A stretch of 56,134 bases of DNA from Bacteroidales bacterium (GTDB lineage Bacteria > Bacteroidota > Bacteroidia > Bacteroidales > UBA3663): NCBI GenBank assembly GCA_017632695.1, contig JAGBQS010000051.1:1-56134 (forward strand), given 5' to 3'. Both the position numbers and the translations under genes were made by a program. Below are positions 4,543-49,284 of the stretch, piece by piece. The notes under the pieces were generated by a model, which worked only from the letters and a program-made list of their open reading frames with translations, did no database searches and had not been told where the DNA came from. Numbering within the stretch: the first letter of the stretch is position 1; each line of letters begins with the position of its first letter.

Positions 4543-6558
4543 ATGTTCGCAAATCTACTTTTCTCCCTTTTATTGGTTGAGTCTGACAGTATCGCCGTTG
4601 AAGGCGGTGCTGTCAGCATTTTCGATAAGACGTTCGATGAGGTTGTGGTGAATGCCGCTGCCGGACAGCAGAAGCAGACAACAGGAAAAGGCGTCGAAAG
4701 TCTGGATGAACATCTGGCCCGACTTCGGCAGGCCGATTTGGTGAAACGCGGAGCCTATGCCAGTGAGGTATCGGTAAACTCGATGCAGACCGAACGCGTA
4801 TCGACGACCATCGACGGTATGAAGATTTTCTGTGCCTGCACCGATCGGATGGATCCCGTTACCTCGTATGTCGAAACCTCGAACCTGAGTCGCATCTTTC
4901 TGAACAGCGGTTTGGGCAACGATCCTCAGGCTACCGGAAATCTGGGAGGCAGCGTCGATCTGAAACTGCGTAAAGCAGGTTTCGATGCAGCGCCCTTCGA
5001 AATGAATGTTCAGACCGGTTTTGAGACCAACGGTTGTTTGCAGTCGTATCTGGCCGATGTGGCTTTGTCGTCCGAAACACGCTACCTGAATACAGGTATA
5101 AGCTTCCGTGATGCCAGGAATTATCAGGCAGGAGGCAACCGGGAAATCGACTTCTCACAGTATCAGAAGTTCAATGTTTTTGCTAATGGCGGCCGGCAAT
5201 GGGGTGATGGCCGGATTGTGGAGTTTTCGGCCATTTACGACCTGGCTACCGATGTGGGTTACCCGTCGCTTACAATGGATGTTAAGAAAGCAGAAGGCCT
5301 GATAACGGCACTCGCTTACCGTCAGGAACACTTCCGGAGTCCGTTGCTGACCCGTTGGGAGAGCAAGGTATACTACAACAACATCCGTCACGAAATGGAC
5401 GATACACACAGGCCCGATGTTGTGATGCACATGGATATGCCCGGGTTGAGCCGGACTTCCGGTCTGTATTCTCTGTTGGCAGGCAGCTGGAAACAGCACC
5501 TCTGGCAACTGAATCTTGACGGCTATCTGAACCGTTCGAGAGCAGAGATGACCATGTATCCGTCTACTTACGGAACGGCTGCCTATAATCCTGCCGACCG
5601 GATGTTTATGCTCACCTGGCCGGATGTACAGACCGGAAATACAGGCTTGTCGGTGTCGGATCAATGGGGAAATTTCCGTCTGACACTGAAGGGCTCTCTG
5701 CAATGGTCGCACATTTCCGATCCTGAAGGACTGGCCACTTTGCAAATCTATTATCCGACTCAGTCTGACCGTCAGTTCCGCCGTGAGGGACGTGTTACGT
5801 TACATTACCGGAAAGACTGGCAAAAGGGAAGCGTGAGTGTCGGAGCTGGCTGGGGATCGCGTACGCCGACTGTTACTGAAGCCTATGGCTATTTCCTTTA
5901 TAATACGTTGGACGGCTACGATTATCTGGGTAATCCGGAACTGAAAAATGAGAAGGCCGTTCAATTCGATTTGTCGGGTTCCTGGTCTCCGGCACCCGAT
6001 TGGGAATTCTCGGCGGACGGTAATCTGTTCCTGTTTGATGATTATATTCAGGGTGGCTTGACCGGCGATGTTTCCGGTTATTCGCCGATGACCATCGGAG
6101 CCTTGGGCGTTAAGCAGTACAGGAATCTCCCATCGGCAACAATTGCAAATCTTTCGTTCGATGCCGACTGGCAACTGAGTAGTGCCTGGCGCTGGCAGAA
6201 CCGCATCGGCTGGTCGTGGGGCAAAGATAACCGGAACCGTTCGCTTCCGCTTATTGCTCCCTTGCAGTTCCGTTCAACCTTGGCATACGAGTGGGGCAGT
6301 TGGGAAGGCAGTGCTTCGGTTATAGGGGCAGCCCGAAAGGAAGATGCAGCCCGTCATCTGGGTGAGCACAGTACCCCCGGTTACGTACTTTATAACTTGC
6401 AGGCCGGCTATCTGGTCCGGTTGGCAGGAAAAGTGAACGTTACGCTGAAGGCAGGGGTGGAGAATGTGCTCGACAAGTACTATACTACCTATGCCAGTTG
6501 GAACGGAATCGGGCAGAAGGGAAGGAACTTTTTTGCTTCACTGCAAGCCTCATTTTGA
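4543..6558 (+). CDS. TonB-dependent receptor (non-SusC type, about 670 aa)
   Basis: Plug region: DLVKRGAYASEVSVNSMQTERVSTTIDGMKIFCACTDRMDPVTSY. A long beta-barrel ends ...GRNFFASLQASF. The N-terminal leader is short and atypical, and an in-frame stop at 4516-4518 prevents extension upstream. Confidence 0.85.
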   Translation: MFANLLFSLLLVESDSIAVEGGAVSIFDKTFDEVVVNAAAGQQKQTTGKGVESLDEHLARLRQADLVKRGAYASEVSVNSMQTERVSTTIDGMKIFCACTDRMDPVTSYVETSNLSRIFLNSGLGNDPQATGNLGGSVDLKLRKAGFDAAPFEMNVQTGFETNGCLQSYLADVALSSETRYLNTGISFRDARNYQAGGNREIDFSQYQKFNVFANGGRQWGDGRIVEFSAIYDLATDVGYPSLTMDVKKAEGLITALAYRQEHFRSPLLTRWESKVYYNNIRHEMDDTHRPDVVMHMDMPGLSRTSGLYSLLAGSWKQHLWQLNLDGYLNRSRAEMTMYPSTYGTAAYNPADRMFMLTWPDVQTGNTGLSVSDQWGNFRLTLKGSLQWSHISDPEGLATLQIYYPTQSDRQFRREGRVTLHYRKDWQKGSVSVGAGWGSRTPTVTEAYGYFLYNTLDGYDYLGNPELKNEKAVQFDLSGSWSPAPDWEFSADGNLFLFDDYIQGGLTGDVSGYSPMTIGALGVKQYRNLPSATIANLSFDADWQLSSAWRWQNRIGWSWGKDNRNRSLPLIAPLQFRSTLAYEWGSWEGSASVIGAARKEDAARHLGEHSTPGYVLYNLQAGYLVRLAGKVNVTLKAGVENVLDKYYTTYASWNGIGQKGRNFFASLQASF

Positions 6559-18341: not shown

Positions 18342-19835
18342 ATGCTTATGAAAACCATTTTGAAACTTAAATACATGTTCTCTGTGCTGGCTCTTTGGGC
18401 TGGCATGGGGAACATGCTATATGCACAGACGGATCTTGATCGCCTGAAACAGCAGTTCGAAGATCAGGCTTCGGAAGATGTGAATGCTTTTGAGGCGTTC
18501 AGCGATTCCGCCCGTCAAGCTTATTTTGACTATGTCCGCCAACAGCAGCAAGACTACGAAATGTTCGTAGACGAAGTGAAGGACGTTTGGGGTAGTGATT
18601 CCATCGTTGACAATACAAAGACCAAGTGGGTTGAGTATGGAAATGATTATCGTAGCCGTAGTGTTGTTGATTTCGAGAATGGAACGATTGAGGTCGAAGT
18701 AGCCGTTGACGAGGATGCTGATGAAGAAGAGGTGCAGCAGCAGCTTTCAGAGGCGGTAGCTCGTCTGCTTGACAGCCGCGGTAGTACGAATCCCAATCAT
18801 TCTTCGGTTGATTTCTCTCAGCCGGTGAGTCAGCAGCCTATTTTGAAGGGGCTGGTTGATTTGAGCCCGTATAATTTCAATGGTGAGATAGACTGGAAGA
18901 GCCCCTTGAAGCAGGAGAACGAGATGACAGAGCGTCAGATTCGGCGCAGATTGCCTGTCCAGGCTAAGTCGAGAACGGATTCTCTGAATGTACGAAAGGG
19001 TGGCGCTGTTGCTCCACCAGCACCCCGTTCGGGCAAGACAATGGCGGAAAAGGTCAAGGAAGATGAGGCCAGACGCGTAGCCGAGGCTGCTGCCCAGCAG
19101 GCTTCAGGCCGTAATTCGCGTTCATCGGGGACAACTAACCCCCAATCGGCTAAGAGTTCCTCAGCAGAAATCCTGATTACCAAGGAGGAGGCAGCTGCCA
19201 GCATAGTGCAGAGTTCGAAGAAATCCACATCGACCGTAAAGGGCAAGGATGGCAAGACTAGAAAGACTGCTACCGTAAAGATGGCAATGGCCACCGAGAG
19301 TCTATCTAAACGTGCCGAACAATTCAAGGATCTGGTGCAGGAATTCAGCAAGACGTTCCAAATAGAAGAGCCGCTTATTTATGCTATTATGGAACAGGAG
19401 TCGAGCTTCAATCCCGAAGCCAAGAGTTGGGTGCCTGCATATGGACTTATGCAATTGGTTCCGACGTCCGGTGGTGCCGATGCCTATCGTTTTGTGTATA
19501 AAAAGCAATATGCACCAACAAGCAGTTACCTGTATGTGCCGCGAAATAATGTAGAATTGGGTACCGCCTATTTGCGAGTGCTGATGAATCAGTTCTCGAA
19601 GGTAAAAGATGAAGGTTGCCGCCGTCTGTGTGTCATTGCCAGCTACAACACAGGAGCGGGAAATGTGAGCAGGGCCTTTATCGGTTCTACCAAACTTTCG
19701 AAGGCATTTGACAAGATTAACGAAATGACATACGACCAGCTTTATAATTACCTGACGCATAATCTCAATACCGATGAGGCTCGTAATTATGTAAGCGGAG
19801 TTTCAAGACGTAGGGAAAAGTATATAAAAAAATAA
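18342..19835 (+). CDS. Membrane-bound lytic murein transglycosylase (MltC-like, SLT domain)
   Basis: 497 aa with a signal peptide. The catalytic region is PLIYAIMEQESSFNPEAKSWVPAYGLMQLVP...IASYNTGAGNVSRAF. A long low-complexity linker occupies the middle. Confidence 0.85.
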   Translation: MLMKTILKLKYMFSVLALWAGMGNMLYAQTDLDRLKQQFEDQASEDVNAFEAFSDSARQAYFDYVRQQQQDYEMFVDEVKDVWGSDSIVDNTKTKWVEYGNDYRSRSVVDFENGTIEVEVAVDEDADEEEVQQQLSEAVARLLDSRGSTNPNHSSVDFSQPVSQQPILKGLVDLSPYNFNGEIDWKSPLKQENEMTERQIRRRLPVQAKSRTDSLNVRKGGAVAPPAPRSGKTMAEKVKEDEARRVAEAAAQQASGRNSRSSGTTNPQSAKSSSAEILITKEEAAASIVQSSKKSTSTVKGKDGKTRKTATVKMAMATESLSKRAEQFKDLVQEFSKTFQIEEPLIYAIMEQESSFNPEAKSWVPAYGLMQLVPTSGGADAYRFVYKKQYAPTSSYLYVPRNNVELGTAYLRVLMNQFSKVKDEGCRRLCVIASYNTGAGNVSRAFIGSTKLSKAFDKINEMTYDQLYNYLTHNLNTDEARNYVSGVSRRREKYIKK

Positions 19836-19902: not shown

Positions 19903-21828
19903 ATGTATTGTCCAGAATGTGGAACCAAAATAGATGATGATTGTCGGTTTTGTCCGGAATGCGGTACGCAAATTGTATCGGATGAGGAGGAAACGGCAGT
20001 TCAACCTTCGCAACCAGTGGCTGCTACCCCCCAGGCTACAGATACGGCTCCTTTTGCAAACCCTTCGGCTAATGTGGAGGAAGATATTACAGAGCCGGAT
20101 CCAGTAGAACCACAAGACGGTAAGGAAGATCCGCTTCCGGAACCTGTCTGCTGGGGTTTGATACTGACCAATGTGAAACTGTTGGCCCTGAAGTTTAATG
20201 TGACGGAAGACCAGCTGTTGGGGGTGTTCAAGCAGTTTATACATTATAAGCGTACCATTGGCATCAGCTACCAACTCATCGATGCAGGTAACTATACCTA
20301 TCATAAGCACGGCTTTTTCAGCAAGCCTAAAACAGTGAGCCTGACGGCCAATGATTCATGGTCGGACTATGGAGCTTTGCTTATGGATATGCATGAGTAT
20401 GAGGTGTCAAAGAAACTGCCGGAATCGCAATATCTGTTTATTGTGGGATCGGAGGATATAGTTCCTATGCCTGCCATCCGTACTTATTTGAGCAAGGAGG
20501 TGGAGAAGGACCGAACCATCGATACGGATCTCCTGTATGCGTATCCTTATGGCCCGGAGATGTTGCAAAAACTGGAAACGCTTGATATCTATCGTTATGA
20601 GGCATTGTTCTATGTAGGACGTTTGCCACTGGCTACGGATGCTACAGTTGAAGATTTGGTATCATACCTGAATCGCGACATAGCTTGTCAGGAAGGAATT
20701 CCGGTAGACGAGATGTATGCCCATTGCGATATGAACTGGAAGAATACGACGGCTCATGAGGTAAAGGTGATTCGCGAGCAGCGTCTGTTCCCGGTTTGGA
20801 AGGTCCAGTTCCCACAAAATTCGTACTACAATGATTTGTTCCTTTCTCCCCCATTGAGATTTGATACGGATAATAAGGAGTTCATGACTCAGAGATTCTT
20901 TAACATTGATGCCAATCTCTTCCTGTTTAATCTGCATGGCTGTCCGACGGCACATGTAGGACATTATAGTGCCAGTTATCCGAACCATAAGGATTGGGTA
21001 GATGCAGTACATCCAAAGTTCGTACAGCAATGTAAATACCCAAACATTATGGTAAGTCAGGCTTGCTATGGCGGACGTTTTATTGGCGAAAAGAAAGATA
21101 CCAGTATGATTATGTCGGCTCTCAGTAACCAGACTTTGGCTTTTGTTGCCTCATCGCGTTCAGCTTGGGGTAGCGTGGATTGTCAGGGAAGTACTCCGGA
21201 TAACGCTCCGATGGCATTCAGCGATGTGTTGGCCAGTTATTTCTTACAGCAAGTGCTGATGGGTATGAGTGTCGGTATGGCTTTCTTCAATACCCGCAGT
21301 TACGTGTTCCAGTACAGAGGAGACGGCAATCCTCAAGATGCCGTCACTATAGCGGAGTTCAACTTGTTTGGTGATCCGACCTTGTTTGGCAATACTGATG
21401 TGGATATTCAGGACAAAGCTCAGACTACGGCTGGAGCAAAAGTTTCGCGTCCTTTAGGAACCAATCAGAAGTCGGCATCCAAAATAGCCTCGGCCAGAAC
21501 CGCCTTTTCTGGAGGAAACAAGGCTCCATTAGCTAAGCCAGACCAGAAATTGGGTGTTAAGACTGAGGTGCTGCAAAGTAAGGCTGCCGGAGGACAGCAG
21601 AGTCTGCTTGATCAGGTTCGCAGTCAGGTGGATGCAAATATGATTGCTATCTGCAAGACGATGGGCCAGCATCTTTATGCTCAATATGGCATAGAGGCAC
21701 GGGAACCAAGCTGTGTTTTGCGCGATACATATCCGGACGGACATCGGGAAATTAAGGCGATGTATGACGATATGATGGTTTCGGCTGATGAACACGGAAA
21801 AGTGCTCGAGGTTTCGGCACTGAAATAA
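19903..21828 (+). CDS. Zinc-ribbon protein fused to a gingipain/caspase-like (clan CD, peptidase C25-like) domain; no signal peptide
   Basis: 641 aa starting MYCPECGTKIDDDCRFCPECG. The C25-like motif order is YLFIVGSEDIVPMP, DTDLLYAYP, YVGRLP, FLFNLHGCP (His345, nt 20935-20937), MVSQACYGGRF (Cys388, nt 21064-21066) and FNLFGDPTLF. Confidence 0.7.
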   Translation: MYCPECGTKIDDDCRFCPECGTQIVSDEEETAVQPSQPVAATPQATDTAPFANPSANVEEDITEPDPVEPQDGKEDPLPEPVCWGLILTNVKLLALKFNVTEDQLLGVFKQFIHYKRTIGISYQLIDAGNYTYHKHGFFSKPKTVSLTANDSWSDYGALLMDMHEYEVSKKLPESQYLFIVGSEDIVPMPAIRTYLSKEVEKDRTIDTDLLYAYPYGPEMLQKLETLDIYRYEALFYVGRLPLATDATVEDLVSYLNRDIACQEGIPVDEMYAHCDMNWKNTTAHEVKVIREQRLFPVWKVQFPQNSYYNDLFLSPPLRFDTDNKEFMTQRFFNIDANLFLFNLHGCPTAHVGHYSASYPNHKDWVDAVHPKFVQQCKYPNIMVSQACYGGRFIGEKKDTSMIMSALSNQTLAFVASSRSAWGSVDCQGSTPDNAPMAFSDVLASYFLQQVLMGMSVGMAFFNTRSYVFQYRGDGNPQDAVTIAEFNLFGDPTLFGNTDVDIQDKAQTTAGAKVSRPLGTNQKSASKIASARTAFSGGNKAPLAKPDQKLGVKTEVLQSKAAGGQQSLLDQVRSQVDANMIAICKTMGQHLYAQYGIEAREPSCVLRDTYPDGHREIKAMYDDMMVSADEHGKVLEVSALK

Positions 21829-23508: not shown

Positions 23509-23544
23509 TTAAGATAGCATCGTAATCAGTAAAAACAATCAAAT

Positions 23545-24606
23545 ATGGAACGTGTAAAAAATTGTCCTGAATGTGGCGAACCTATTGGTCCAGATGAGAA
23601 CATTTGTCCGGTTTGCCAATACGAACTCACACCGGAAGAGCAAGGGTTGGATCCTCAGCCGGATACTTCAGAAATGCCGGCTGCACCAGAGGCACCCGCT
23701 TTTGATATGCCGGAAGCTCCGACTATGTCTGATTTCAATCCTTTTGAATCCACAGGAAATACAAAACCCGGCGGATCTGCCAACGGAGGTGAAACAACTA
23801 TCATGAGTACAGGATCTGTTGACAACAGCAGCCATGTTTCAAATAGTGATTCGCACAATACAAATGTAGTTGACAACAGTCAGACTTCCAATACGGTTAA
23901 TAATACCAGCAACAGTGTGACCAATAATCAGACTACCAATGTCTTTATCATTGGAGGTGGCGATGCGCCTGTGCCTCAAGGCCTGGATCCGAATACGGCA
24001 GCTGCTATTGCTCAGGCTCAGCAGACTAAGAAACCTCGGAAGCCGAATGTATCAGCTGAATCTGATGATACCTCCGCATCTGGGGCCAAAGGTGTCGGCT
24101 CGATATCAGGAGGCCCGGCTTTCCAGCCGCAACCCGCAAAAAAAGGCAGCGGAGGCGGATTAGGAGTCGGTCTGATTGCCGGGATTGTAGCGGGTATTCT
24201 GGTTATTGCAGGTATTGCCTATCTGTTTTCTGGAAACGGGTCGGATGTGCAGAGTCCGGTTCCTCAGTCTACTCAAGATGTCGTTACTCAGCCAGCGTCA
24301 CAGCCGGACGTTCAGCCAGTTGTTCAGCCGGTAACAGAGAAACCATCTGTTAATGTTGTTCAAGAGGCTCCAGCGACGGAGAAACCTGCTGTTCAAGTCC
24401 AAGAACCTGCACCTGTTGTTGTGGACGAAGACTTCGAACTGGGAATGAAGGCTTTCGATGCAAACGACGGTTTGACAGCTTTGAAATATTTCGAAGCATC
24501 GTATGCCAAGGGTAATCAACAGGCTAAGCGAATGTTATATACCATTTATAAAAATGGATGCGGGTCTGTGGCTAAGAATGAATTGAAAGCAGAAGATTAC
24601 GAGTAA
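23545..24606 (+). CDS. Bitopic membrane protein: N-terminal zinc ribbon, N/S/T-rich region, one TM helix, Pro/Gln-rich spacer, C-terminal Sel1-like repeat
   Basis: 353 aa. Zinc ribbon: NCPECGEPIGPDENICPVCQ. TM helix GLGVGLIAGIVAGILVIAGIAYLF is preceded by KK. C-terminal repeat: GLTALKYFEASYAKGNQQAKRMLYTIYKNG. Confidence 0.62.
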   Translation: MERVKNCPECGEPIGPDENICPVCQYELTPEEQGLDPQPDTSEMPAAPEAPAFDMPEAPTMSDFNPFESTGNTKPGGSANGGETTIMSTGSVDNSSHVSNSDSHNTNVVDNSQTSNTVNNTSNSVTNNQTTNVFIIGGGDAPVPQGLDPNTAAAIAQAQQTKKPRKPNVSAESDDTSASGAKGVGSISGGPAFQPQPAKKGSGGGLGVGLIAGIVAGILVIAGIAYLFSGNGSDVQSPVPQSTQDVVTQPASQPDVQPVVQPVTEKPSVNVVQEAPATEKPAVQVQEPAPVVVDEDFELGMKAFDANDGLTALKYFEASYAKGNQQAKRMLYTIYKNGCGSVAKNELKAEDYE

Positions 24607-24645: not shown

Positions 24646-25626
24646 ATGAAAAGGCTTTTTTTATTTCTATTGACGATAAGTACAACGGTGAGTGTCATGA
24701 TGGCAGCCTCAACACCAGTCATGTATGTTGAGTATTTCTTGACGGCCCATGAAAATTATTTGCCATATATAGAAGAGGTGCGCAGTGCAGTAATGGATGG
24801 CATTGGTCTGACGCAACGTTTTACGTTGGTCGATGTTTCTTCGCAGCAATCTTTGCAAATTGAGGAAAGCCGTCGTTCAAGTCTTTCGAATATGCCGGAT
24901 TCATTGTCTCGAAACGGCATTATGAAGCAGTTAGGTGCCAACTACATTCTTTCCGGGCATCTGCATACCTTAAGTTGCGATGAGTCTTCGTTTGGCGAGG
25001 ATGTTATTGGTTATATGGCTACCATTTCGCTTACACTGAAGATTATTGATACCAGCAATGGAGCGACTGTGGCACTTGAAGATATCAAGTTCCTGGGTCA
25101 GCATGGCGGTTATGGCAAGAATCCGAACGATGCTGTAACAAGCCTCATGAAACATGTTCAGAAAGCCATGCCTCCTTTCATCAATGCCGGATTCCCTGTG
25201 GAAGGTGTGGTTGTTGATACAGACTATACCATTAAAAAAGAAGAGATGACTTCTTGCTATGTTACGATGGGCAAGGAACACGGTATGTTCGAAGGGTTGC
25301 GTCTGAATGCCTATGAAACTAAGTTCATTGCAGGAGAAAAGGTATTCAAGTCGAGAGCCACGCTTGTTGTAATTGAGGTCGTGAGTGACCGTCTTTGCCG
25401 CTGTAAAGTGGATCAAGGCAATGAATTTCTCGCTACTGCAATGAAGGCATACAAGAAACTGGCAGCCGTAGATCCGGATAATGCCCAGCCAATTGTGGTC
25501 CGTCCTTCAGTGAAGGAGTATGTGCCAGACAACTCGAAGGCTTTGAATAAGGCGCGTGTCGGAGCCGGAAGCAGGGCTATCTACAATATCCTGAAAGAAG
25601 CTTCGCAGGATAACAGTAAAAAATAA
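24646..25626 (+). CDS. Secreted protein with a CsgG/LpoB-like (TolB-N-like) module plus a C-terminal beta domain
   Basis: 326 aa with a signal peptide. Pattern: VMYVEYF...EEVRSAVMDGIGLTQRFTLVD...MKQLGANYILSGHLHTLS...ATISLTLKIIDTSNGATVAL. Confidence 0.55.
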   Translation: MKRLFLFLLTISTTVSVMMAASTPVMYVEYFLTAHENYLPYIEEVRSAVMDGIGLTQRFTLVDVSSQQSLQIEESRRSSLSNMPDSLSRNGIMKQLGANYILSGHLHTLSCDESSFGEDVIGYMATISLTLKIIDTSNGATVALEDIKFLGQHGGYGKNPNDAVTSLMKHVQKAMPPFINAGFPVEGVVVDTDYTIKKEEMTSCYVTMGKEHGMFEGLRLNAYETKFIAGEKVFKSRATLVVIEVVSDRLCRCKVDQGNEFLATAMKAYKKLAAVDPDNAQPIVVRPSVKEYVPDNSKALNKARVGAGSRAIYNILKEASQDNSKK

Positions 25627-26951
25627 TGACTAAAATTTGTCAGACTATGAGACTTTTGAATTTTATGCAGCGGTGTTTGCTGCCGGCTATGCTTTCATTC
25701 TTTTTGTTGGGAACAGCCAAAGCCGAAAACTATTTGCAGATAGTTACCCTGAAAAATACGCAGGGTGCTGCTGCTACCTTCGAATCGAAGGGTATTCATT
25801 CTGAAAAGAAACAGGTGATAGGTAATGCTACCCGTTCAGTTTTCTATACTTTGTTTTATGTAGGTGTTGAGGGCGTCAACAACGGTCAACCATTGGTGGT
25901 GAACGAGAAGAAAGCCTATACCGATCAGTTCATTTCTGATAACGGCGACTATTGTATGTATTATGTTGTCGATCGTGTTGAATTGAGTGCACCCAAAAAG
26001 GAGGGAGGAAAGTATCGTGGTAATTATGCTATTCAGATTAATCTGAAGAAGTTGCTCTCTGATTTGGAGAAAAATGGTATTTTTCAGTCTTCCAATGCCG
26101 GTTCCAAAGACAATGTCGCAGCAGAGGATGTGCGTTCGGCTGATAACTTGATAACTCCTACGGTTATTGTGGTGCCTTATAAGAAAGAGGGAGAATCGTA
26201 TAGTGCCATTCTGCAGTCGGATGCTGATCGCCGAATCGCGGTTGCTAGGGTTCAGGACGGTTTTGAGTCCCGTAATATTACAACGGTCGATCTTGAAGCA
26301 AAGATTTCGGCTGTACAGCGGCGCAATGCTTATGAAAAGAATAGTGGCGCTGCAGACAGTAATGACAAGCAACTGCTTTTGACTTCAGGTGCCGATGTCT
26401 ATGTAACAGTAGATATCAACAAGGAAACCACTGCGGCTGGTTCTCGCGTCTCATTGTCGATGAAGGCTTATGAAACGGCCTCAGGCAGTGTGTTGGCATC
26501 GAAGGTTGCTACTCCTGTCCGATATTATCAGACTACAGCTACAGATGCTCTCTGTAACTATGCGATTTCCGATGCTTTGCAGCCGTTCCTGGATGATATC
26601 TGTAAGAATTTCCGTCCTGCAAGCGGAACCAAAGTTGTTCTTCAGTTTGCTATAGATAGCAGTTCATCGGCAACCATGAACGATCCGATGGGTAAAAATA
26701 ACTATTCTTTTAGTAATATAGTCCGTCAGTGGGTACGTAAAAACAGTTATCAGGGCAAATATCATCTGCAGGGAGTTATGGACGAGAGCATGATTTTTGA
26801 TTATGTCACTATTCCTCCGAAGGATGAAGATGGTCTGCGCATGGATGCTGCTCAATTTGCTTTCTTGTTGGAACAGTATTTGAAAGAGACAGAAGGTATC
26901 AGTTGCAGCAGTCGCGTGGATGGTAATAATATCTTGTTTACGATTTTTTAA
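25626..26951 (+). CDS. Secreted protein of unknown function with a central CsgG/LpoB-like module
   Basis: 441 aa with a signal peptide ending GTAKA-EN. Its start overlaps the upstream stop (TAATG). Pattern: PTVIVVPYKKEG...RIAVARVQDGFESRNITTVD...SGADVYVTVDINKE...VSLSMKAYETASGSVLAS. Confidence 0.5.
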   Translation: MTKICQTMRLLNFMQRCLLPAMLSFFLLGTAKAENYLQIVTLKNTQGAAATFESKGIHSEKKQVIGNATRSVFYTLFYVGVEGVNNGQPLVVNEKKAYTDQFISDNGDYCMYYVVDRVELSAPKKEGGKYRGNYAIQINLKKLLSDLEKNGIFQSSNAGSKDNVAAEDVRSADNLITPTVIVVPYKKEGESYSAILQSDADRRIAVARVQDGFESRNITTVDLEAKISAVQRRNAYEKNSGAADSNDKQLLLTSGADVYVTVDINKETTAAGSRVSLSMKAYETASGSVLASKVATPVRYYQTTATDALCNYAISDALQPFLDDICKNFRPASGTKVVLQFAIDSSSSATMNDPMGKNNYSFSNIVRQWVRKNSYQGKYHLQGVMDESMIFDYVTIPPKDEDGLRMDAAQFAFLLEQYLKETEGISCSSRVDGNNILFTIF

Positions 26952-26962
26952 ATAATTGAATC

Positions 26963-33938: not shown

Positions 33939-36785
33939 ATGAAACTTGAAGGAAAGGCGAATCTTCGCAGTATGTTCCTGAGGTCAGTTCCGGCGGCAGC
34001 TTTGCTCCTTATCGGGGCAGGCAGTTGTTCTGATGACTTCGATTCATACTACGAACGTCCAAGTTGGCTGGAAAAACCAGCCTCAGAAGTGCTCTCTTCA
34101 CGAGGTGATTGCGAGCAGTATCTGAAACTTGTTGAGAAGACCCTTTATTCGAAGCAGTTGGAAGGATCGGGAAGTTATACCTTCTTTGTACCTACCGATG
34201 AAGCATTCAATGACTTCTTCTCCAACAACGAGTATGGCTGGCGATCGGTCGAGGATATTCCAGAAACCGATGCTGCAAACATTGTTTCGTATCTGATGCT
34301 CTATAATCAGTATCTTTGCGATTCCTTGGGTAATTATCATCCTACTACCAGCGAGCATCCCGAAGGAAGTGCTTTGAAGCATCAGACGCCTTCTTACCAG
34401 ATTCTTTCAAAAGAATACTATCAGGGTGATTCGGTTTATGCATACGATTATACGGGAAATTGGACAGAAACGTGGCACAATTACCGATATTTGCCGACCA
34501 TTTCCAATTCTTATCGGAAATCAAATCTGAAAGAATCGGATTATGGACTGATGTTCCCAGGTCGTACATTCTCAACATATGGAAATGTGGTAGATGCCCA
34601 GATTCTTGAATATACAAGCGGATCAGCCGACCTTTATTGTGAGAATGGAGTTGTTCATCTGATTAACAAAGTTGTGCTTCCGCTTAAGAATCTGGATGAC
34701 ATGATTACATCTTATCCGGAGTCCTCTACACTTCCGTCTTCTGCCCAAAATGGAGCATGGTCGGTGCTGAAGAAAACTTTGAATCATCGTATGGGTTCCG
34801 GAGACTATCAATTCTTAAGCTATACCGAATCGACGAATGCAACGCATTATTTCGAGAAAATGTATCCCAATACAAATCTCGACAATCTGCGTTTGCGTTT
34901 GTACAAAACCACTACTAATCCCTTTGCCCTGAATCTTGAGGCTTATACCGGAAGTGTGGATGGTGACGATACCTATAATTCAGGTGTAACATTCTTTGTT
35001 CCTACCCAGGAAGCACTCGAAAACTATATCGAAAACCGAATCCTTTCTTATGTTGATCATGCTGGCTGGAATACCGACCAGACATCGTTCGATAAAGCAT
35101 TTAATTCGGTAGCCGAAAATGTTCTTCCGACATTGTGGGGCAATTTGCAGGCTAACGGTATAATTTGGCCTTCTCAGTTCGCTACAGCTCACAATTCGCT
35201 TGGATATAATGAGTTTATCGACAGTAACGATTCTCTGACGTACAATTATTCAAAGAATGTCCAATCGTCCGGATTCGCTTCGAACGGTATGTATCATATT
35301 ATAGATTATGTACCAAAGACAGGTGCTTTCGAGGGAGTTGGCAGCCGTTTTGTGCTTGATCCTTCTTATGGAGTTGCAAACCTGACGTATTCCGAAACTT
35401 ATGCCAATTCTATTTATAGTCACATGTTATATTCACGTCTTTCGGGATATCCGCAAGTGAATTTCACTTTGATTCTGAACAGCGATAAGAATCTGGATTT
35501 GTGGTCGGGCGTCAACTATAACTCTGCCAATTCGGCTTATAGTGACCGGTATGATGCTACTGTTAGCACCAGTTCAACCTCTGCCAATACGGCAATTAAT
35601 GAGATGTCTCAGCGTAGCTTCATCGAACGGGATACGATTGATGCTCTTGATTTGGGCAAAGACGTGTTCGATGGTGCTTATGGTGGTTGGGGGTTCACCT
35701 CTAATTTCTTTGGCGATGTAATCCGTTATAAGAAGATTGATGGAACCGATAAGATTATGGTTCAGTCAATTTGGTCGATTGTGAATGATCCGACAGAAAC
35801 TCCTCTTTGGAATGCAACTGCAAACAGCAACGTTCCGGCTGGAATGCAGGCTTCGGAGCCAATGTCTGATTTTTATACAACTGTCGTTGAAGACGAATAT
35901 GCCGGGTATGTCAATGGTAAGGTATATAGAGTGGAAGAAGGTAGTGTCCCGCTTTCTTACGGCTATCTTGCCGGGACATACAATGGAATTAACGGTAGGA
36001 CATACCAGGATGATGATTACTACGGTATCAAGGCATATCTGGAATGGTATCTGCGTTGCGATTCTGCCCGTTATGCCCAAAATCCGTCGCTGCCTGCTAA
36101 TATGCGCCATTCTTTGTTCAAGGAGTATTGGGACTTTGCCTTCAATCGTGGTACCTACACCAATACGGTTGCGCGTTGGCGACAGGTGCCGGTAGCCACA
36201 TCTTTGCCAGAGTTTGGAACTAGCCGGTATACGATTCTGGTTCCGACAGACGAGGCGTTGGAGTTTGCTATATCAAAAGGTTATCTGAAAACCTGTAATG
36301 ATATGGCAACACTTAATCGACAGAACAAGGCTTTGAACTATCGTGATACCGTGTGCGCTTTTCTGAAAGCCTATCTGACCGTTACCGATGTTTATCCGGA
36401 CGATGGTGCTGCATATTTCTATAGCACCAATACGTGGGATTGCCCGTCGGTGAATCTGGTTAATGAATATCAGATTGGTACGTCCTACCAGCCGGTTTCC
36501 GACGAATATGAAGATTTCATGTCGGGAACCCAGCGTTTGTATATCCGAGTTTCGAAGACTGGCGAGAATCACAATCTTCGTTTCCTCGGGCGAGATTATG
36601 AAACCGGTAGATTTACCGCCTATCGTGCTATCAACGCTTCCAGTGAAGCAACTGATGAACATCCGTTCGACAATCAGGTGGTACGAGGCTTGGGCCAGAG
36701 CAACATTATTTGTCCTCGGGGTATCATTCATAGTTTGAATGGATACATCTTCTATAAGTTTGTTAGTAAAGAGTCACAACAGTAA
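33939..36785 (+). CDS. Multi-fasciclin (FAS1) domain surface lipoprotein
   Basis: 948 aa with lipobox GAGSC-SDDFDS. Three FAS1 H1-like motifs (YTFFVPTDEAFNDF, VTFFVPTQEALENYI, YTILVPTDEALEFAI) have matching H2-like motifs (NGVVHLINKVVLP, NGMYHIIDYVP, RGIIHSLNGYI). Confidence 0.8.
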   Translation: MKLEGKANLRSMFLRSVPAAALLLIGAGSCSDDFDSYYERPSWLEKPASEVLSSRGDCEQYLKLVEKTLYSKQLEGSGSYTFFVPTDEAFNDFFSNNEYGWRSVEDIPETDAANIVSYLMLYNQYLCDSLGNYHPTTSEHPEGSALKHQTPSYQILSKEYYQGDSVYAYDYTGNWTETWHNYRYLPTISNSYRKSNLKESDYGLMFPGRTFSTYGNVVDAQILEYTSGSADLYCENGVVHLINKVVLPLKNLDDMITSYPESSTLPSSAQNGAWSVLKKTLNHRMGSGDYQFLSYTESTNATHYFEKMYPNTNLDNLRLRLYKTTTNPFALNLEAYTGSVDGDDTYNSGVTFFVPTQEALENYIENRILSYVDHAGWNTDQTSFDKAFNSVAENVLPTLWGNLQANGIIWPSQFATAHNSLGYNEFIDSNDSLTYNYSKNVQSSGFASNGMYHIIDYVPKTGAFEGVGSRFVLDPSYGVANLTYSETYANSIYSHMLYSRLSGYPQVNFTLILNSDKNLDLWSGVNYNSANSAYSDRYDATVSTSSTSANTAINEMSQRSFIERDTIDALDLGKDVFDGAYGGWGFTSNFFGDVIRYKKIDGTDKIMVQSIWSIVNDPTETPLWNATANSNVPAGMQASEPMSDFYTTVVEDEYAGYVNGKVYRVEEGSVPLSYGYLAGTYNGINGRTYQDDDYYGIKAYLEWYLRCDSARYAQNPSLPANMRHSLFKEYWDFAFNRGTYTNTVARWRQVPVATSLPEFGTSRYTILVPTDEALEFAISKGYLKTCNDMATLNRQNKALNYRDTVCAFLKAYLTVTDVYPDDGAAYFYSTNTWDCPSVNLVNEYQIGTSYQPVSDEYEDFMSGTQRLYIRVSKTGENHNLRFLGRDYETGRFTAYRAINASSEATDEHPFDNQVVRGLGQSNIICPRGIIHSLNGYIFYKFVSKESQQ

Positions 36786-39700
36786 TGATTAAAACAGGAA
36801 ACAAAATGAAAACATTCACCAGAATCTTACTGTTCATACTTTTGAGCACTTTGTCTCTGCCGGCTATGGCACAGAAGACAATGATTCGAGGTACCATTAT
36901 GGATGGAACCTTCGACGAACCAATGGCTGGTGCCAACGTTGTATGGCAGAATAAGGACGGGCGAATCCTTACAGGAGCGCAAACCGACTTTAACGGTAAT
37001 TTCTCTTTGGCCGAAATGATACGTCCGGGCGATGTCCTGATTATTTCGTTTACGGGTTATAAGAAACAGACAATCTCAATTACTGCTTCCCAAACGGTCT
37101 ATAATGTAACGTTGGTAGAGGAGAACGTCCAGTTGAAGGATGTTGAAGTTACAGCCGTTCGTCGTCAGAATTCCGGTATGATGTCGATCGCAGAACGCGA
37201 TCTTACGACATCTGCCAAGAAAATCGATATGGCAGAACTTGAGGATCTGGCGGTAGCCGATGCTACTGATGCCCTTCAGGGTCGTGTAGCAGGTGTTGAT
37301 ATGGTCGCAACCTCTGGTGCCCCAGGTTCGGGTATGTCTATACGCGTGCGCGGTACCACTTCTATTAACGGTTCGTCTGAGCCGCTTGTTGTTGTCGACG
37401 GATTCCCATACGAAACCACGATTGACGATGATTTCGATTTCTCGACAGCCGATGAGGACGATTATGCAACCATGTTGAATATCGCACCTGATGATATCAA
37501 GGAGATTACGGTATTGAAAGATGCGGCTGCAACTGCAATCTATGGTTCTAAAGGTGCTAACGGCGTGCTTTTGATTACAACCAAGCGCGGTGCAGTAAGC
37601 AAACCGACAATCACCTATTCGTTCAAGGGCTCCATTACCACTCCGGGCGATGGTATTCCTATGCTGAATGGTGAGGAATACACCAACCTCATTATGGAGG
37701 AACTCTTCAATGCCGGCCGTGTATTCAATCCTCAGACCTATCCGCAGTTGGCCAACGATGGTAACAATCTTTACAATTATTACAACTATGGACAAAATAC
37801 CAATTGGTATAAGGAACTGACCCAAACCGGATTTGTTCAGGATCACTCCATCTCTATTTCGGGCGGTTCGCAGAAAGCTATGTACCGAGCTTCGTTTAAC
37901 TATTACGATAGCAAGGGTACTACCATAGGAGAGGGCTACCGCCGTTTGTCAAGCCGTGTGAATATCGACTATAACATTTCGGAAAAGTTGAAATTCTCGG
38001 CGTCGATGTCATATACCAACAGTAACACCGACAGAAACTATGTTACGGCTCTCAACAAGAACTACAACGTATTGTCGCAGGCATTTAACCGCGCTCCGAA
38101 CATGGGCGTTTACGAATATGACGAAGTAGGCAACCTGACCAATAATTATTTCACCCCTGCTACCGATTTGTCCGGAAGCTATTGGAACGGAGCTGTTACA
38201 AGTCCTTATAACCCGGTTGTTATGGCCAACGAAGGTTATTACAAGACTCGCGGCAATCGTGTTATTCCGAATCTTTCTTTGCAATACCGGCCGTTGACCT
38301 GGCTCCGCTATCAGTTAGAAGTAGGTTTGGATATTAATAACGAGAAGCAGAACGCATTCGTTCCACAGTCTGCAACAGGTCGTCCTTGGACTGAATCGAC
38401 CGTGAATGTAGCCTTGGACAAGGATAACGAGTCTTTTGCATTTCAGACATATAATAAGTTGTTCTTTACCCCCGACTTGGGCGAAAATCAGAACCTGCAG
38501 ATTGTGCTTGGTTTGAATACGTCCGATTCTCGTACTAAGAACCTTGCTGTTGGTACCAGCAATACGGCTTCTGTAGAATTGACCGACCCGTCGAACGGTG
38601 GTACGGTTGCCAACTCGACCACTTTCGGTTCGTCTTCAAGTGAAGTCCGTTCGGTGAATACCTTCGGACAGGTACAGTATTCTTTGCATGACCGGTATAT
38701 TTTTGGTGCCGCCCTGAGTTATGAAGGATCTTCAAAGTTCGGCGACGGTAACCGATGGGCATTGTTCCCGTCTGTATCTGGCCGTTGGCGTATTTCCGGA
38801 GAGCCGTTCATGAAAGATTTGGCAGAAAAGACTAAGCTCTCTGAATTCTCTTTACGATTCAGCTACGGTGAATCTGGTTCGTCCAGAGCGTTGGGCAACT
38901 ATGCATCGCAAGCAACTTACAATACCTATGCATACACTTATCTGAAACAGCAAGGTACTTATCAGACTGGTCTGGAGTTGAGTCAGTTGAAATGGGAGAG
39001 AACCAAGTCTTTCAATACAGGTGTCGATCTGGGCTTTATCGAAAATCGCATCAATGCCCACTTCGAGTGGTATTTCAAGAGTTCTGCCGATCTGGTTGTC
39101 AAGTCAAGGTTGATTCCAACCTCTACCGGTTTTGCCAATGCAGCATATCTGAATTATGCAGGTATGCAGAACAAGGGTTGGGAACTTGATTTCGATTTTG
39201 TTCCTTACCGTACTAAAGATTGGAATATCAAGGTTTCGGCAAACTTCGCCCGTAATGAAAACGAGCTGAAGGACGATCTGGAAACGTCAGGATCGTGGAC
39301 TTCCAATACCATCTCGGGTTATTATCCAACCCTTTTGGTTAAGGGACAGCCTTTAGGTTCATTCTATGGATACATTTACGAAGGCGTTTATCTGAACGAC
39401 GAACAGACGATTGCGGTTGATGCCAACGGTAACAAGATCATGACCTACAAGGATGGTAAGTTGCAATATGTACACATGCGTTTCAACTATACCAACGACA
39501 ACAGCTACACCTTCAAGGCTGGTGATGCAAAATATAAGGATGTGAACCACGATGGTAACATCAACGAGCAGGATGTTGTTTATCTCGGTAATGGTATGCC
39601 GTTGTTTACGGGCGGTTTCGGTATCAATGTCAAGTACAAGCAATGGACGCTGAATACCTTCTTCAACTTCCGTTACGGCAATGACATTGTCAATATTGCC

Positions 39701-40126
39701 AAGGCTTCTATGGAATCGATGCATTCTTTCAACAATCAGTCGACTTCCGTTCTGCGTCGGTGGAGACATGAGTATACCAACGAACAGATTGAGAATGGAG
39801 AAGTGCCGAGCGGTCTGCTGCCACGTGCTTACTATGGTTGGAATGCAACTTATAACTCTTTGGCATCAAGCCGGTATGTTGAGGACGGTTCGTTCCTGCG
39901 CTTCAAAACTGCCACACTCAGTTATTCGTTCCCGAAGAACCTGCTGAAGGGCACTTTTGTGAGCGATGCGAAGATTTATGTTCAGATGCAGAACATTTAT
40001 TGCTGGACAAAGTATACGGGTATGGATCCGGAAGTCTCGATTTCGAACGCCCAGAATCCGGGTTACGATACATCGAATACACCGCGTCCTCATGAGTATA
40101 CTCTTGGTATCAACGTCAAATTCTAA
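36785..40126 (+). CDS. SusC/RagA-family TonB-dependent transporter
   Basis: Motifs IRGTIMDGTFDEPMAGANVV, IRVRGTTSINGSSEPLVVVDGF and IKEITVLKDAAATAIYGSKGANGVLLITTKRG; the protein ends YTLGINVKF. The start is either 36785 (TAATG overlap) or, more likely, MKTFTRILL at 36806. Confidence 0.92.
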   Translation: MIKTGNKMKTFTRILLFILLSTLSLPAMAQKTMIRGTIMDGTFDEPMAGANVVWQNKDGRILTGAQTDFNGNFSLAEMIRPGDVLIISFTGYKKQTISITASQTVYNVTLVEENVQLKDVEVTAVRRQNSGMMSIAERDLTTSAKKIDMAELEDLAVADATDALQGRVAGVDMVATSGAPGSGMSIRVRGTTSINGSSEPLVVVDGFPYETTIDDDFDFSTADEDDYATMLNIAPDDIKEITVLKDAAATAIYGSKGANGVLLITTKRGAVSKPTITYSFKGSITTPGDGIPMLNGEEYTNLIMEELFNAGRVFNPQTYPQLANDGNNLYNYYNYGQNTNWYKELTQTGFVQDHSISISGGSQKAMYRASFNYYDSKGTTIGEGYRRLSSRVNIDYNISEKLKFSASMSYTNSNTDRNYVTALNKNYNVLSQAFNRAPNMGVYEYDEVGNLTNNYFTPATDLSGSYWNGAVTSPYNPVVMANEGYYKTRGNRVIPNLSLQYRPLTWLRYQLEVGLDINNEKQNAFVPQSATGRPWTESTVNVALDKDNESFAFQTYNKLFFTPDLGENQNLQIVLGLNTSDSRTKNLAVGTSNTASVELTDPSNGGTVANSTTFGSSSSEVRSVNTFGQVQYSLHDRYIFGAALSYEGSSKFGDGNRWALFPSVSGRWRISGEPFMKDLAEKTKLSEFSLRFSYGESGSSRALGNYASQATYNTYAYTYLKQQGTYQTGLELSQLKWERTKSFNTGVDLGFIENRINAHFEWYFKSSADLVVKSRLIPTSTGFANAAYLNYAGMQNKGWELDFDFVPYRTKDWNIKVSANFARNENELKDDLETSGSWTSNTISGYYPTLLVKGQPLGSFYGYIYEGVYLNDEQTIAVDANGNKIMTYKDGKLQYVHMRFNYTNDNSYTFKAGDAKYKDVNHDGNINEQDVVYLGNGMPLFTGGFGINVKYKQWTLNTFFNFRYGNDIVNIAKASMESMHSFNNQSTSVLRRWRHEYTNEQIENGEVPSGLLPRAYYGWNATYNSLASSRYVEDGSFLRFKTATLSYSFPKNLLKGTFVSDAKIYVQMQNIYCWTKYTGMDPEVSISNAQNPGYDTSNTPRPHEYTLGINVKF

Positions 40127-40131
40127 GCATT

Positions 40132-41898
40132 ATGATTATGAAATCAAAGATATATAAAATAGCTTCCGTTGCTCTTCTGGGCAGTTCGATGTTGATGTCC
40201 ACTTCTTGCAATGACTGGTTGGGCCTGTCACCGGAAAGCAGCGTTACTGCCACCGATTATTGGAAGACAGAATCGGATGTGGCAAGTGCCATGACAGGCA
40301 TCTACTGCTCGTGGGTCAATGCAACGAACCGCATCTTCATGCACGGTGAGATGCGTGCAGATTATCTGGCGCCGTATAATACAAACGATGCCTACACCAA
40401 TATCCGCGAGTGTAACATTGCCAGCACCAATACCTGGGTGGCTTGGCAGGCATACTACACGGTAATCAATAACTGTAACCTGTTGCTCGAAAAGTCCGAC
40501 GAGGCTCTGGCAGCCGATGCTTCGTTCAGCGCTACGGCTTGTGAACAGTATAAAGCGGCTGCCACAACGGTTCGCGCGCTGATGTATTTCTATTTGATTC
40601 GTGTCTACAAGGATGTGCCATATGTAACATGGGCATATTTCAGCGACGAAACGAATCGCAATTGCGCAGTTACCAAGCAGGCTGAGATTTTGGATGATCT
40701 GATCAGTCAGTTGGAGAAAATCGAAGCTGCCGGTTCGCTCCCTTATTCATACAGCAGTACGAATGTAGCGGCTAATAAGGGACAGGTTACCATGTATTTC
40801 CTGAAGACCCTTTTGGCCGATATGTATCGCTGGCAAGGTGCTTTGGCTACAGATAAAACTAAGTCGCAGACTGCTTACCAGAAGTGTGTCGACGAGTGTA
40901 ATTCGATTATTGCAAGCGGACAGTACACACTGATTCCGATTACCAAGCAGTTGCCGGCTGAGGCAGGTGTTGACCTGGAGGATGTCAGCAGCATGTTGTA
41001 TCAGGATCAGTTCTATCTGACAACTTCTGCCTCCGTGCAGGAAATGTTCAATGCTATCTATGTGACAGGTAACAGTAGCGAGAGTATTTTCGAACTGCAG
41101 ATTGATACCTATAGTGCAACTCCGTTCTATTCGATGCTGATTGCTTCCAACCGGCCTTATGTACCTAATTCCGATTTGCTGGACGAAAGTGTCTTCCTTG
41201 ACAGCGAGAAACTTCTGGGCAAGGTGAACGGATACGAAGATGTTCGCCGCTTGCTTAACAATCAGGGTAATGGCGGTTACTGCTGGAAGTATGCGGGTAT
41301 GGACATGAATGCTACTGTCTATTCGGCTGCATCTGAGTTCGAAAAGAATATCATGGTTTATCGTCTGGCAGAGGTTTATCTGATGAAGGCTGAGGCTTTG
41401 GTTCAGTTGGCTTGGGCTAACGACGAAGATCCTGCCCTCTTGTTGGAGGCATACAAGGCTGTATTCAAGGTTCGCGATCGTGCTTCGGCTGTTGAGACTA
41501 CCGATGTGACTGTTAATAATGCAGCATTCCAGGATGTATATTGGAATGAGCTTCGTAACGATCAGGATTTTACCATCGCCAAGGGTGATTTGACGTGTCA
41601 GTCAATGGAGCAGTTCGTTCTCGATGAGGAGGGACGTGAAATGGCATTCGAGGGTCGCCGATGGTTCGATGTTCTTCGTACCGCAGCGCGCAATTCGTAT
41701 GGAAAAGGCAGCTGCACCGGTGGCGGTATCAGCTATCTTCTGAACATCGTTACCTCTGCTACGACAATCACAAAGGCTTCGAGTGTGCGTTCGCGTTATA
41801 GTAATTATTACGAGTGCCATTACTTGCCCTATCCCAGGAACGATGTTAAGATGAATGCGTTGCTTGATCAGAAATCTGATTGGGAGATGGCAGAATAA
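40132..41898 (+). CDS. SusD/RagB-family surface lipoprotein
   Basis: 588 aa with lipobox MSTSC-NDW. SusD-like helices: VRALMYFYLIRVYKDVPYV, YRLAEVYLMKAEALVQL, EMAFEGRRWFDVLR. Confidence 0.9.
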   Translation: MIMKSKIYKIASVALLGSSMLMSTSCNDWLGLSPESSVTATDYWKTESDVASAMTGIYCSWVNATNRIFMHGEMRADYLAPYNTNDAYTNIRECNIASTNTWVAWQAYYTVINNCNLLLEKSDEALAADASFSATACEQYKAAATTVRALMYFYLIRVYKDVPYVTWAYFSDETNRNCAVTKQAEILDDLISQLEKIEAAGSLPYSYSSTNVAANKGQVTMYFLKTLLADMYRWQGALATDKTKSQTAYQKCVDECNSIIASGQYTLIPITKQLPAEAGVDLEDVSSMLYQDQFYLTTSASVQEMFNAIYVTGNSSESIFELQIDTYSATPFYSMLIASNRPYVPNSDLLDESVFLDSEKLLGKVNGYEDVRRLLNNQGNGGYCWKYAGMDMNATVYSAASEFEKNIMVYRLAEVYLMKAEALVQLAWANDEDPALLLEAYKAVFKVRDRASAVETTDVTVNNAAFQDVYWNELRNDQDFTIAKGDLTCQSMEQFVLDEEGREMAFEGRRWFDVLRTAARNSYGKGSCTGGGISYLLNIVTSATTITKASSVRSRYSNYYECHYLPYPRNDVKMNALLDQKSDWEMAE

Positions 41899-41915
41899 GT
41901 TAAGAGCTAGAATGT

Positions 41916-44036: not shown

Positions 44037-44049
44037 TTAAATCACGACT

Positions 44050-49282: not shown

Positions 49283-49284
49283 TT

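Follow-up and report, generated by a model that had tools for sequence, protein, structure and literature searches.

A zinc-ribbon peptidase of the gingipain family (C25), predicted to be cytoplasmic, and its linkage to a gene for a predicted SPFH-domain protein

We analyzed a stretch of 56,134 nucleotides (the window), positions 1 to 56,134 of the forward strand of contig JAGBQS010000051.1 from a Bacteroidales bacterium of lineage UBA3663 (assembly GCA_017632695.1). The gene in question, an open reading frame (ORF) with an ATG start at 19903..21828 on the plus strand, codes for a 641-aa protein, which we characterize by its ORF, a match to PF01364, an AlphaFold2 model and Foldseek searches as a zinc-ribbon-tethered cysteine peptidase of family C25 (the gingipain family, clan CD). 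All the features of the cluster given below lie on the plus strand. The protein starts with a zinc ribbon (residues 2-23, CPECG...FCPECG, 19906..19971; Pfam Zn_Ribbon_1, E=9.6e-8), followed by an acidic, Pro-rich linker rich in P, E, A and D (residues 24-82, 19972..20148), which is predicted to be disordered, as the predicted local distance difference test (pLDDT) score is <50 at residues 28-72. The catalytic domain occupies residues 83-497 (20149..21393; residues 101-494 in the Pfam match, pLDDT mostly >90); it carries the catalytic His345 (codon CAT, 20935..20937) in an NLHG motif after strand 339-343, and the catalytic Cys388 (codon TGC, 21064..21066) in an [QE]ACYG motif after strand 381-385. 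A conserved C-terminal alpha/beta domain, delineated by secondary structure, pLDDT and invariant residues, makes up residues 553-641 (21559..21825). Directly downstream are the genes of a protein with a predicted SPFH domain and of a third zinc-ribbon protein with a transmembrane (TM) segment.

The protein belongs to peptidase family C25 by every criterion that could be tested. The motifs YLFIVGSEDIVPMP (residues 177-190), DTDLLYAYP (207-215), YVGRLP (237-242), FNLHG (342-346), SQACYGG (385-391) and LFGDPTLF (488-495) are all in place, in the order and with the positions of His345 and Cys388 from which the original prediction, made from the sequence alone, had assigned the protein to C25/clan CD. 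The profile and structure searches bear this assignment out. The Pfam family Peptidase_C25 (PF01364) matches with E=1.2e-10 and scores 41.6 bits (gathering cut-off 23), in a single stretch that aligns residues 101-494 with profile positions 5-372 of 374, while the CHAT, C14, C11 and C13 profiles of Pfam and NCBIfam give no match at E<=10. Most of the homologues also carry a precomputed PF01364 match. The kinship to gingipains is visible only through the Pfam profile and the fold: searches of PDB with phmmer and with a 64-sequence profile returned zinc-ribbon matches and no gingipain chain, and because of this outcome of direct sequence searches we regard the protein as a distant branch of C25.

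An AlphaFold2 model was built from a 64-sequence alignment; with mean pLDDT 84.3 and predicted TM-score (pTM) 0.82, it leaves only the linker 28-72 and a loop at 505-522 disordered. The top Foldseek matches of the model in PDB were gingipains, Kgp (6i9a, 4rbm) and RgpB (1cvr, 4ief), with E 1e-10 to 5e-10, TM-score 0.50-0.59 (normalized by target length) and Foldseek identity of 11-12%. The second tier of matches, with E from 1e-6 to 1e-3, consisted of CHAT/Csx29, separases and caspases. In the model, H345-G346 comes directly after the hydrophobic strand 339-343 and A387-C388 directly after the hydrophobic strand 381-385, which is the clan CD arrangement.

Conservation of the dyad was assessed in 66 homologues taken from genome loci of four phyla, Flavobacterium, Treponema, Spirochaetales, Verrucomicrobiaceae and Marinimicrobia among them. 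Residues H345, G346, C388, G390, N487, G490 and P492 were retained in 66 out of 66, and H345 was also invariant in two other alignments (A1 and A2). The dyad that had been read from a single sequence as intact is thus intact in all 66 homologues and, with these residues conserved, the C25 enzymes of this branch are very probably active.

No signal peptide or TM segment was found in the protein by hydropathy analysis, and no match to Por_Secre_tail or another C-terminal domain of type IX secretion (T9SS) was seen at E<=10 in Pfam or NCBIfam. The highest 19-residue Kyte-Doolittle mean, 1.39, falls on residues 82-100. This segment was ruled out as a TM anchor, given its low mean, the presence of N and K, and its folding in the model into a strand and a helix with pLDDT 97-98. 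A cryptic signal peptide revealed by a corrected start, which could have overturned the intracellular placement, was looked for and ruled out as well: an in-frame stop seven codons upstream of the ATG makes a longer N-terminus impossible, and the homologues begin at the same M[FY]CPECG. None of the 66 homologues has an N-terminal hydrophobic segment (a few have internal hydrophobic stretches away from the N-terminus), and 58 of the 66 have CxxC...CxxC within the first 60 aa. One relative, P0381 (1114 aa), in which an AAA+ ATPase is fused N-terminally to the C25 domain, also counts in favor of an intracellular location. With the secretion signals absent, the straightforward inference from sequence is that the protein is probably cytoplasmic. 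The claim that it lacks both a signal peptide and a T9SS C-terminal domain and should act inside the cell therefore agrees with hydropathy, profiles, the upstream stop and the homologues alike.

As for the C-terminal part, described originally as an unrelated tail of about 140 aa, we saw instead a linker and a conserved domain specific for the family. After the low-confidence linker 505-522 the model has a strand (553-559), a helix (568-593) and four strands (604-640), with pLDDT of ~84-91 in most blocks and 53-69 over residues 561-600. Eleven positions of this domain are invariant in the family, S567, L569, R573, V576, L591, Y592, R600, G613, Y621 and G632 among them. The high pTM suggests that the domain would pack on the catalytic domain. 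Searches for its identity (Pfam with the fragment, Pfam with 16 aligned homologues, a profile search of PDB) gave nothing significant; a single weak match to YusW (PepSY-like; E=0.015) was not taken as evidence.

A word-indexed search yielded 327 relatives, nearly all with 96-100% query coverage and 35-43% identity, named by NCBI either ‘C25 family cysteine peptidase’ or ‘zinc-ribbon domain-containing protein’. In an exhaustive HMMER scan of 1.84 billion representatives, 622 clusters were matched at E<=1e-3 and 97 at E<=1e-30. The genome locus nearest to that of the window comes from a metagenome-assembled genome of Bacteroidales from goat reticulum, with 80% identity of the C25 protein. The linker length differs widely among the homologues.

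Some family members deviate at the N-terminus. The Bacteroides hominis orthologue (L030:9995-11647; L designates genome loci and P proteins) is a 550-aa ORF; the NCBI records WP_186993034.1 and WP_222618901.1 begin at an internal Met (494 and 498 aa) and omit the zinc ribbon that this ORF encodes. Start-site mis-annotation in a part of the family probably explains these short records. On the other hand, P0322, P0324, P0326, P0331 and the proteins of loci L049, L052 and L057 are ~800-870 aa long, with an extension of 260-350 aa before the C25 domain; by eye, the N-termini of the long members in L049 and L052 are charged and helix-like. In L049, L052 and L057 the SPFH gene is situated 3-3.7 kb upstream of the C25 gene and is not adjacent to it.

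The gene downstream of the C25 gene (21889..23508) codes for a protein of 539 aa, in which the AlphaFold2 model and Foldseek delineate a zinc ribbon, a beta-rich N-terminal domain, an SPFH domain and a coiled coil, with no TM segment. The model has pLDDT 75; its coiled-coil region of ~190 residues is formed by helices 324-365 and 373-517. Foldseek matches include HflK/C (7vhq, 9cz2, 9paw), stomatin (4fvj), QmcA (8z5g) and flotillin (9bq2), with E from 1e-5 to 1e-3, as well as the major vault protein; three of the matched structures, 7vhq, 9cz2 and 7wi3, are of HflK/C-FtsH. Pfam sees only the zinc ribbon in this protein and gives no SPFH, Band_7 or Band_7_1 match; the SPFH assignment is drawn from predicted structure only. 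Neither a TM segment nor an export signal was found by hydropathy in the partner protein.

The SPFH homologues (P0139-P0239) fall into size classes of ~510-550, 640 and 740-850 aa. In the long forms the N-terminal ribbon is duplicated and further zinc ribbons are present at the C-terminus, while the copy in the window is a short one with a single N-terminal ribbon. Within the hypervariable linker a near-invariant Asp, D46, is located ~8 residues before the first strand of the folded N-terminal domain (alignment A3), in the motif ‘..D[LVM]xxxxxxR[IV]YW’; this residue may cap the domain or mark a site of processing.

To assess linkage, we scanned one genome per species, which gave 80 loci, and scored them by tblastn and ORF analysis. 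The C25 and SPFH genes were both recovered in 58 loci; in 54 of these they were immediate neighbors on one strand, separated by -20 to 135 bp, with many pairs overlapping or 2-30 bp apart. This linkage spans four phyla (Bacteroidales, Flavobacterium, Treponema, Spirochaetales, Verrucomicrobiaceae, Marinimicrobia); among the abundant gut and rumen Bacteroidales the genes are present in B. hominis (a member of the Bacteroides fragilis group), B. cellulolyticus, Butyricimonas, Odoribacter and Alistipes. The original prediction had named the SPFH-like and bitopic neighbors as possible partners, a good lead in view of the tight linkage of the SPFH gene; that the pairing extends across phyla had escaped it. 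We consider it highly probable that an active intracellular C25 peptidase is functionally coupled to the SPFH gene.

The third gene of the cluster (23545..24606) was delineated by Pfam, hydropathy and synteny; its product of 353 aa has a zinc ribbon, a low-complexity linker, a TM segment at 201-232, a Pro-rich spacer and a short Sel1-like tail. The single TM segment is preceded by KK, which is consistent with an N-in topology and would place the Sel1-like tail in the periplasm. A weak NCBIfam match of this bitopic protein to GltJ was discarded: it scores 20.5 bits where the cut-off is 450, and falls within the TM and low-complexity part. In 38 other loci, as detected by a hidden Markov model (HMM) of its module, a third zinc-ribbon family follows the C25-SPFH pair. 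The module consists of one or more zinc ribbons, the motif ‘GDKNxIxGxVIG..GNATI.K.EDxTK’ and then a CxxC...CxxC knuckle; the module HMM gave no match in the window's own bitopic protein, where the module is degenerate. The C-terminal ends vary: Sel1 (x12), TPR, leucine-rich repeats (LRR) of BspA type or a pectin-lyase-like beta-helix, with TM plus Sel1 in Bacteroides. Some loci carry two copies; examples of the third component are found at L042:14857-19699, L054:3344-5809, L058:2417-5269, L062:13299-16070, L047:8344-10986 and L030:14149-15435.

A small fourth gene is a part of many of these clusters. In tblastn searches four small-protein queries matched 44 loci, with the match located mostly between the SPFH gene and the third gene (examples, from loci L002-L060, are L030:13884-14168, L042:14117-14845 and L054:9749-10147). 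The product is beta-rich, ~75-94 aa long, with the motif ‘G(T/H)V...K..GSKSEG’ and no Pfam match. The lineage of the window has lost this gene.

Upstream of the C25 gene, at a distance of 67 bp, is the gene of an MltC-like lytic transglycosylase (18342..19835; Pfam SLT and MltC_N; NCBIfam MltC with E=9e-54, below the equivalog cut-off). An mltC gene is located directly upstream of the C25 gene in many loci labeled as different Bacteroidales groups, and purL is near the cluster in four loci. Downstream of the third gene, four genes of exported or lipoprotein-like products (LpoB-like, DUF6175, LPP20 and a small lipoprotein; 24646..28906) were delineated by Pfam, signal-like N-terminal sequences and synteny. 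This block travels with the cluster across Bacteroidales (L004-L061), downstream of it in some lineages and upstream in others, e.g. in Cryptobacteroides (L027, L034, L044, L061). In the window all the genes from purL through the gene of a MATE transporter are co-directional, with gaps <=67 bp, and the only strong terminator (30704-30731) follows the MATE gene; scans of the cluster for sigma-70 promoters and terminators stayed at background level, which is uninformative for Bacteroidota. The rest of the window is an ordinary piece of chromosome that carries SusC/D pairs, TonB receptors, purL, a dicarboxylate symporter, DprA and a pectate lyase.

What could such a cluster do? On balance we lean towards a scheme in which the C25 protein serves as proteolytic subunit in an SPFH-protease module close to the membrane and is gated by the scaffold. 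The peptidase would be an active cytoplasmic, non-secreted clan CD cysteine endopeptidase, with the catalytic domain tethered by the zinc ribbon and a flexible linker of ~55 residues. Its obligate partner would be the TM-less zinc-ribbon SPFH/coiled-coil protein encoded directly downstream, which, by analogy with its SPFH relatives, probably assembles into a ring-like or dome-like oligomer on the cytoplasmic side of the inner membrane. The third zinc-ribbon protein could serve as a membrane anchor and periplasmic contact, in the window as a bitopic protein with a periplasmic Sel1-like tail, and the N-terminal zinc ribbons of the three proteins might gather them on that side of the membrane. 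The protease would in this way be confined or gated by its scaffold, much as FtsH is by HflK/C and STOPP/NfeD by stomatin, and would respond to the envelope state by cutting either a partner (candidates are the SPFH tail and the long cytoplasmic linker of the anchor) or a client. The envelope state is suggested as the input in Bacteroidales by the periplasmic tail, mltC and the lipoprotein block; we hold this part with less confidence than the scheme as a whole, and less than the coupling of the two genes.

Extended to all the lineages, the scheme becomes tentative: one could speculate, with somewhat more doubt than belief, that the loci carry a phylum-spanning module of three or four genes (zinc-ribbon C25, zinc-ribbon SPFH, small beta protein, zinc-ribbon repeat/TM protein), where an SPFH cage at the cytoplasmic face houses a gingipain-type protease and envelope or invader signals are transmitted via regulated proteolysis.

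Several observations weigh against the gated membrane-proximal module. Binding of the C25 and SPFH proteins is suggested by gene linkage, which gives no direction of regulation, and a representative search found no C25-SPFH fusion among 144 C25 relatives (P0241-P0384). The SPFH partner has no TM segment, and its membrane association is proposed by analogy only. Outside Bacteroidales the third proteins appear, by eye, to have no TM segment and carry variable LRR, TPR, Sel1 or beta-helix repeats; such a combination is more in keeping with a sensor in the cytoplasm than with an anchor in the envelope. The small fourth gene was not found by tblastn in the window (where the gap would be 23509-23544) or in the closest relative, L001. 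Finally, B. hominis, Alistipes and other phyla either lack the lipoprotein block or have it at a distance, so that the envelope link may be a matter of lineage-specific synteny.

Some of these observations would be at home in a conflict or anti-phage system, with the C25 protein as effector or activator (the role proposed originally), the repeat protein sensing an invader and the SPFH protein acting as membrane effector or scaffold. CHAT/Csx29, separase and caspases do come right after gingipains among the structural relatives; the variable repeat ends of the third component in other phyla and its duplicated copies are typical of sensor diversification, and one small adaptor-like domain, the zinc ribbon, is common to all the components. 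Nevertheless, we consider this role unlikely, having seen no positive evidence for it. The search of PADLOC-DB v2 gave no match for any of the eight cluster proteins at E<=0.1, and a toxin-type effector, such as a gasdermin, a nuclease or a TIR protein, was likewise not found in the cluster, in line with the early remark that a gasdermin-like gene is absent. The chromosome around is ordinary, with no mobile-element or defense genes found in the window, and retention of mltC in many Bacteroidales loci, with purL nearby in four, suggests vertical inheritance rather than a shuffling island. Less probable still is that the enzyme is not a degradative endopeptidase but a transpeptidase, ligase or self-processing enzyme, with a partner, for example the SPFH tail or the small fourth protein, being modified or conjugated. 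Precedents for it exist, as PorU is a sortase-like transpeptidase of family C25 and clan CD includes ligating legumains; besides, the dyad is strictly conserved and a small conserved protein is encoded beside the pair in most loci. Nothing in the sequence, however, separates hydrolysis from transpeptidation; the small protein, being absent from the window and L001, cannot be an obligatory substrate, and no ubiquitin-like or sorting-signal motif was identified.

Export by a non-classical route, with action in the periplasm or outer membrane on co-encoded lipoproteins or on peptidoglycan-linked proteins, could account for the co-conservation of mltC and the four exported or lipoprotein-like genes in Bacteroidales, and to our knowledge all characterized C25 enzymes are extracytoplasmic. 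We nonetheless see it as very unlikely: a signal peptide, a TM segment and a T9SS C-terminal domain are all missing from the C25 protein, a Cys4 zinc ribbon should require the reducing conditions of the cytoplasm, the SPFH partner is devoid of export signals too, and in many lineages the pair occurs with no lipoproteins. Equally hard to believe is a stand-alone cytoplasmic housekeeping protease whose adjacency to the SPFH gene is meaningless. While such a reading could appeal to the fact that interaction is deduced from linkage, with no fusion proteins found, adjacency at short gaps in 54 of 58 loci and four phyla is far beyond what synteny decay would leave, and both proteins have the same type of N-terminal zinc ribbon.

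A scaffold-gated C25 peptidase, the reading that we favor, has relatives among known systems. The familiar C25 peptidases are mainly the gingipains, which are secreted virulence proteases, and the T9SS sortase PorU. The Porphyromonas gingivalis gingipains RgpB and Kgp (MEROPS C25) are of the same family by profile, have the closest fold and share the order of His-Gly and Ala-Cys, each after a hydrophobic strand. However, the protein described here does not have their signal peptide, N-terminal prodomain and T9SS C-terminal domain; it starts instead with a zinc ribbon and a disordered linker, ends in a helix-plus-sheet domain, and is predicted to be cytoplasmic, and so does not conform to the canonical secreted gingipain/PorU type. 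The clan CD proteases of conflict systems (CHAT/Csx29 of Craspase, the bacterial caspase-like gasdermin activators) and separase resemble it in having the clan CD fold, in intracellular location and in regulation by partners; on the other hand, the C25 protein has no CHAT or C14 profile match and no CRISPR, gasdermin or NTPase partner, and the gingipain fold is closer.

Association of SPFH proteins with proteases is long-standing (HflK/C-FtsH, stomatin-STOPP, prohibitin-AAA). In HflK/C-FtsH and in stomatin-STOPP/NfeD (PH1511/PH1510) the gene of an SPFH/coiled-coil scaffold is likewise linked to a protease gene. Here, in contrast, a clan CD cysteine peptidase takes the place of the AAA+ metalloprotease or Ser-Lys protease; the SPFH protein carries a zinc ribbon and is devoid of a TM segment or hairpin, and the complex would be on the cytoplasmic side. 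In Bacillus subtilis the integral membrane proteins YdjG and YdjH recruit a soluble SPFH protein from their own operon, YdjI/SamI, to the membrane (PMC8581546; bioRxiv 10.64898/2026.02.06.704340). This YdjG/YdjH/YdjI system (SamGHI), with envelope-stress and cell-wall phenotypes, combines a soluble SPFH protein with membrane partners, as we propose here; however, SamGHI has no protease and works with PspA, while no PspA gene is present in our cluster, and with no Band_7 match orthology is not supported.

A search within a limited literature library found no paper on this branch of C25, on the combination of C25 with a zinc ribbon, on the pairing of SPFH with a gingipain-family protein, or on DUF6175. 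New are the predicted cellular location and the architecture for a C25 peptidase, and the class of protease in an SPFH-protease pair. A conserved intracellular branch would widen the view of the roles of family C25, and the linkage to SPFH adds a cysteine-protease version to the SPFH-protease theme, with a simple bacterial system for studying SPFH gating of proteolysis. If the phylum-spanning module is true, it would be a third, mechanistically distinct class of SPFH-protease machines, present in major gut commensals including the B. fragilis group; should it sense envelope state, it could matter for how commensals tolerate bile, antibiotics or phages. Some of the Bacteroidales hosts are cultured and may be genetically tractable, and the hypothesis should thus be testable.

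Two other regions of the window drew our attention. At 4543-6558, between the genes of a YtkA-like and a SusD-like protein, there is a 671-aa ORF with no Pfam match at E<=1e-4. At 33939-51234 (plus strand), two SusC/SusD-like pairs are interspersed with three large proteins that have fasciclin domains (948, 706 and 673 aa); this fasciclin content is unusual for a locus of the polysaccharide-utilization type.

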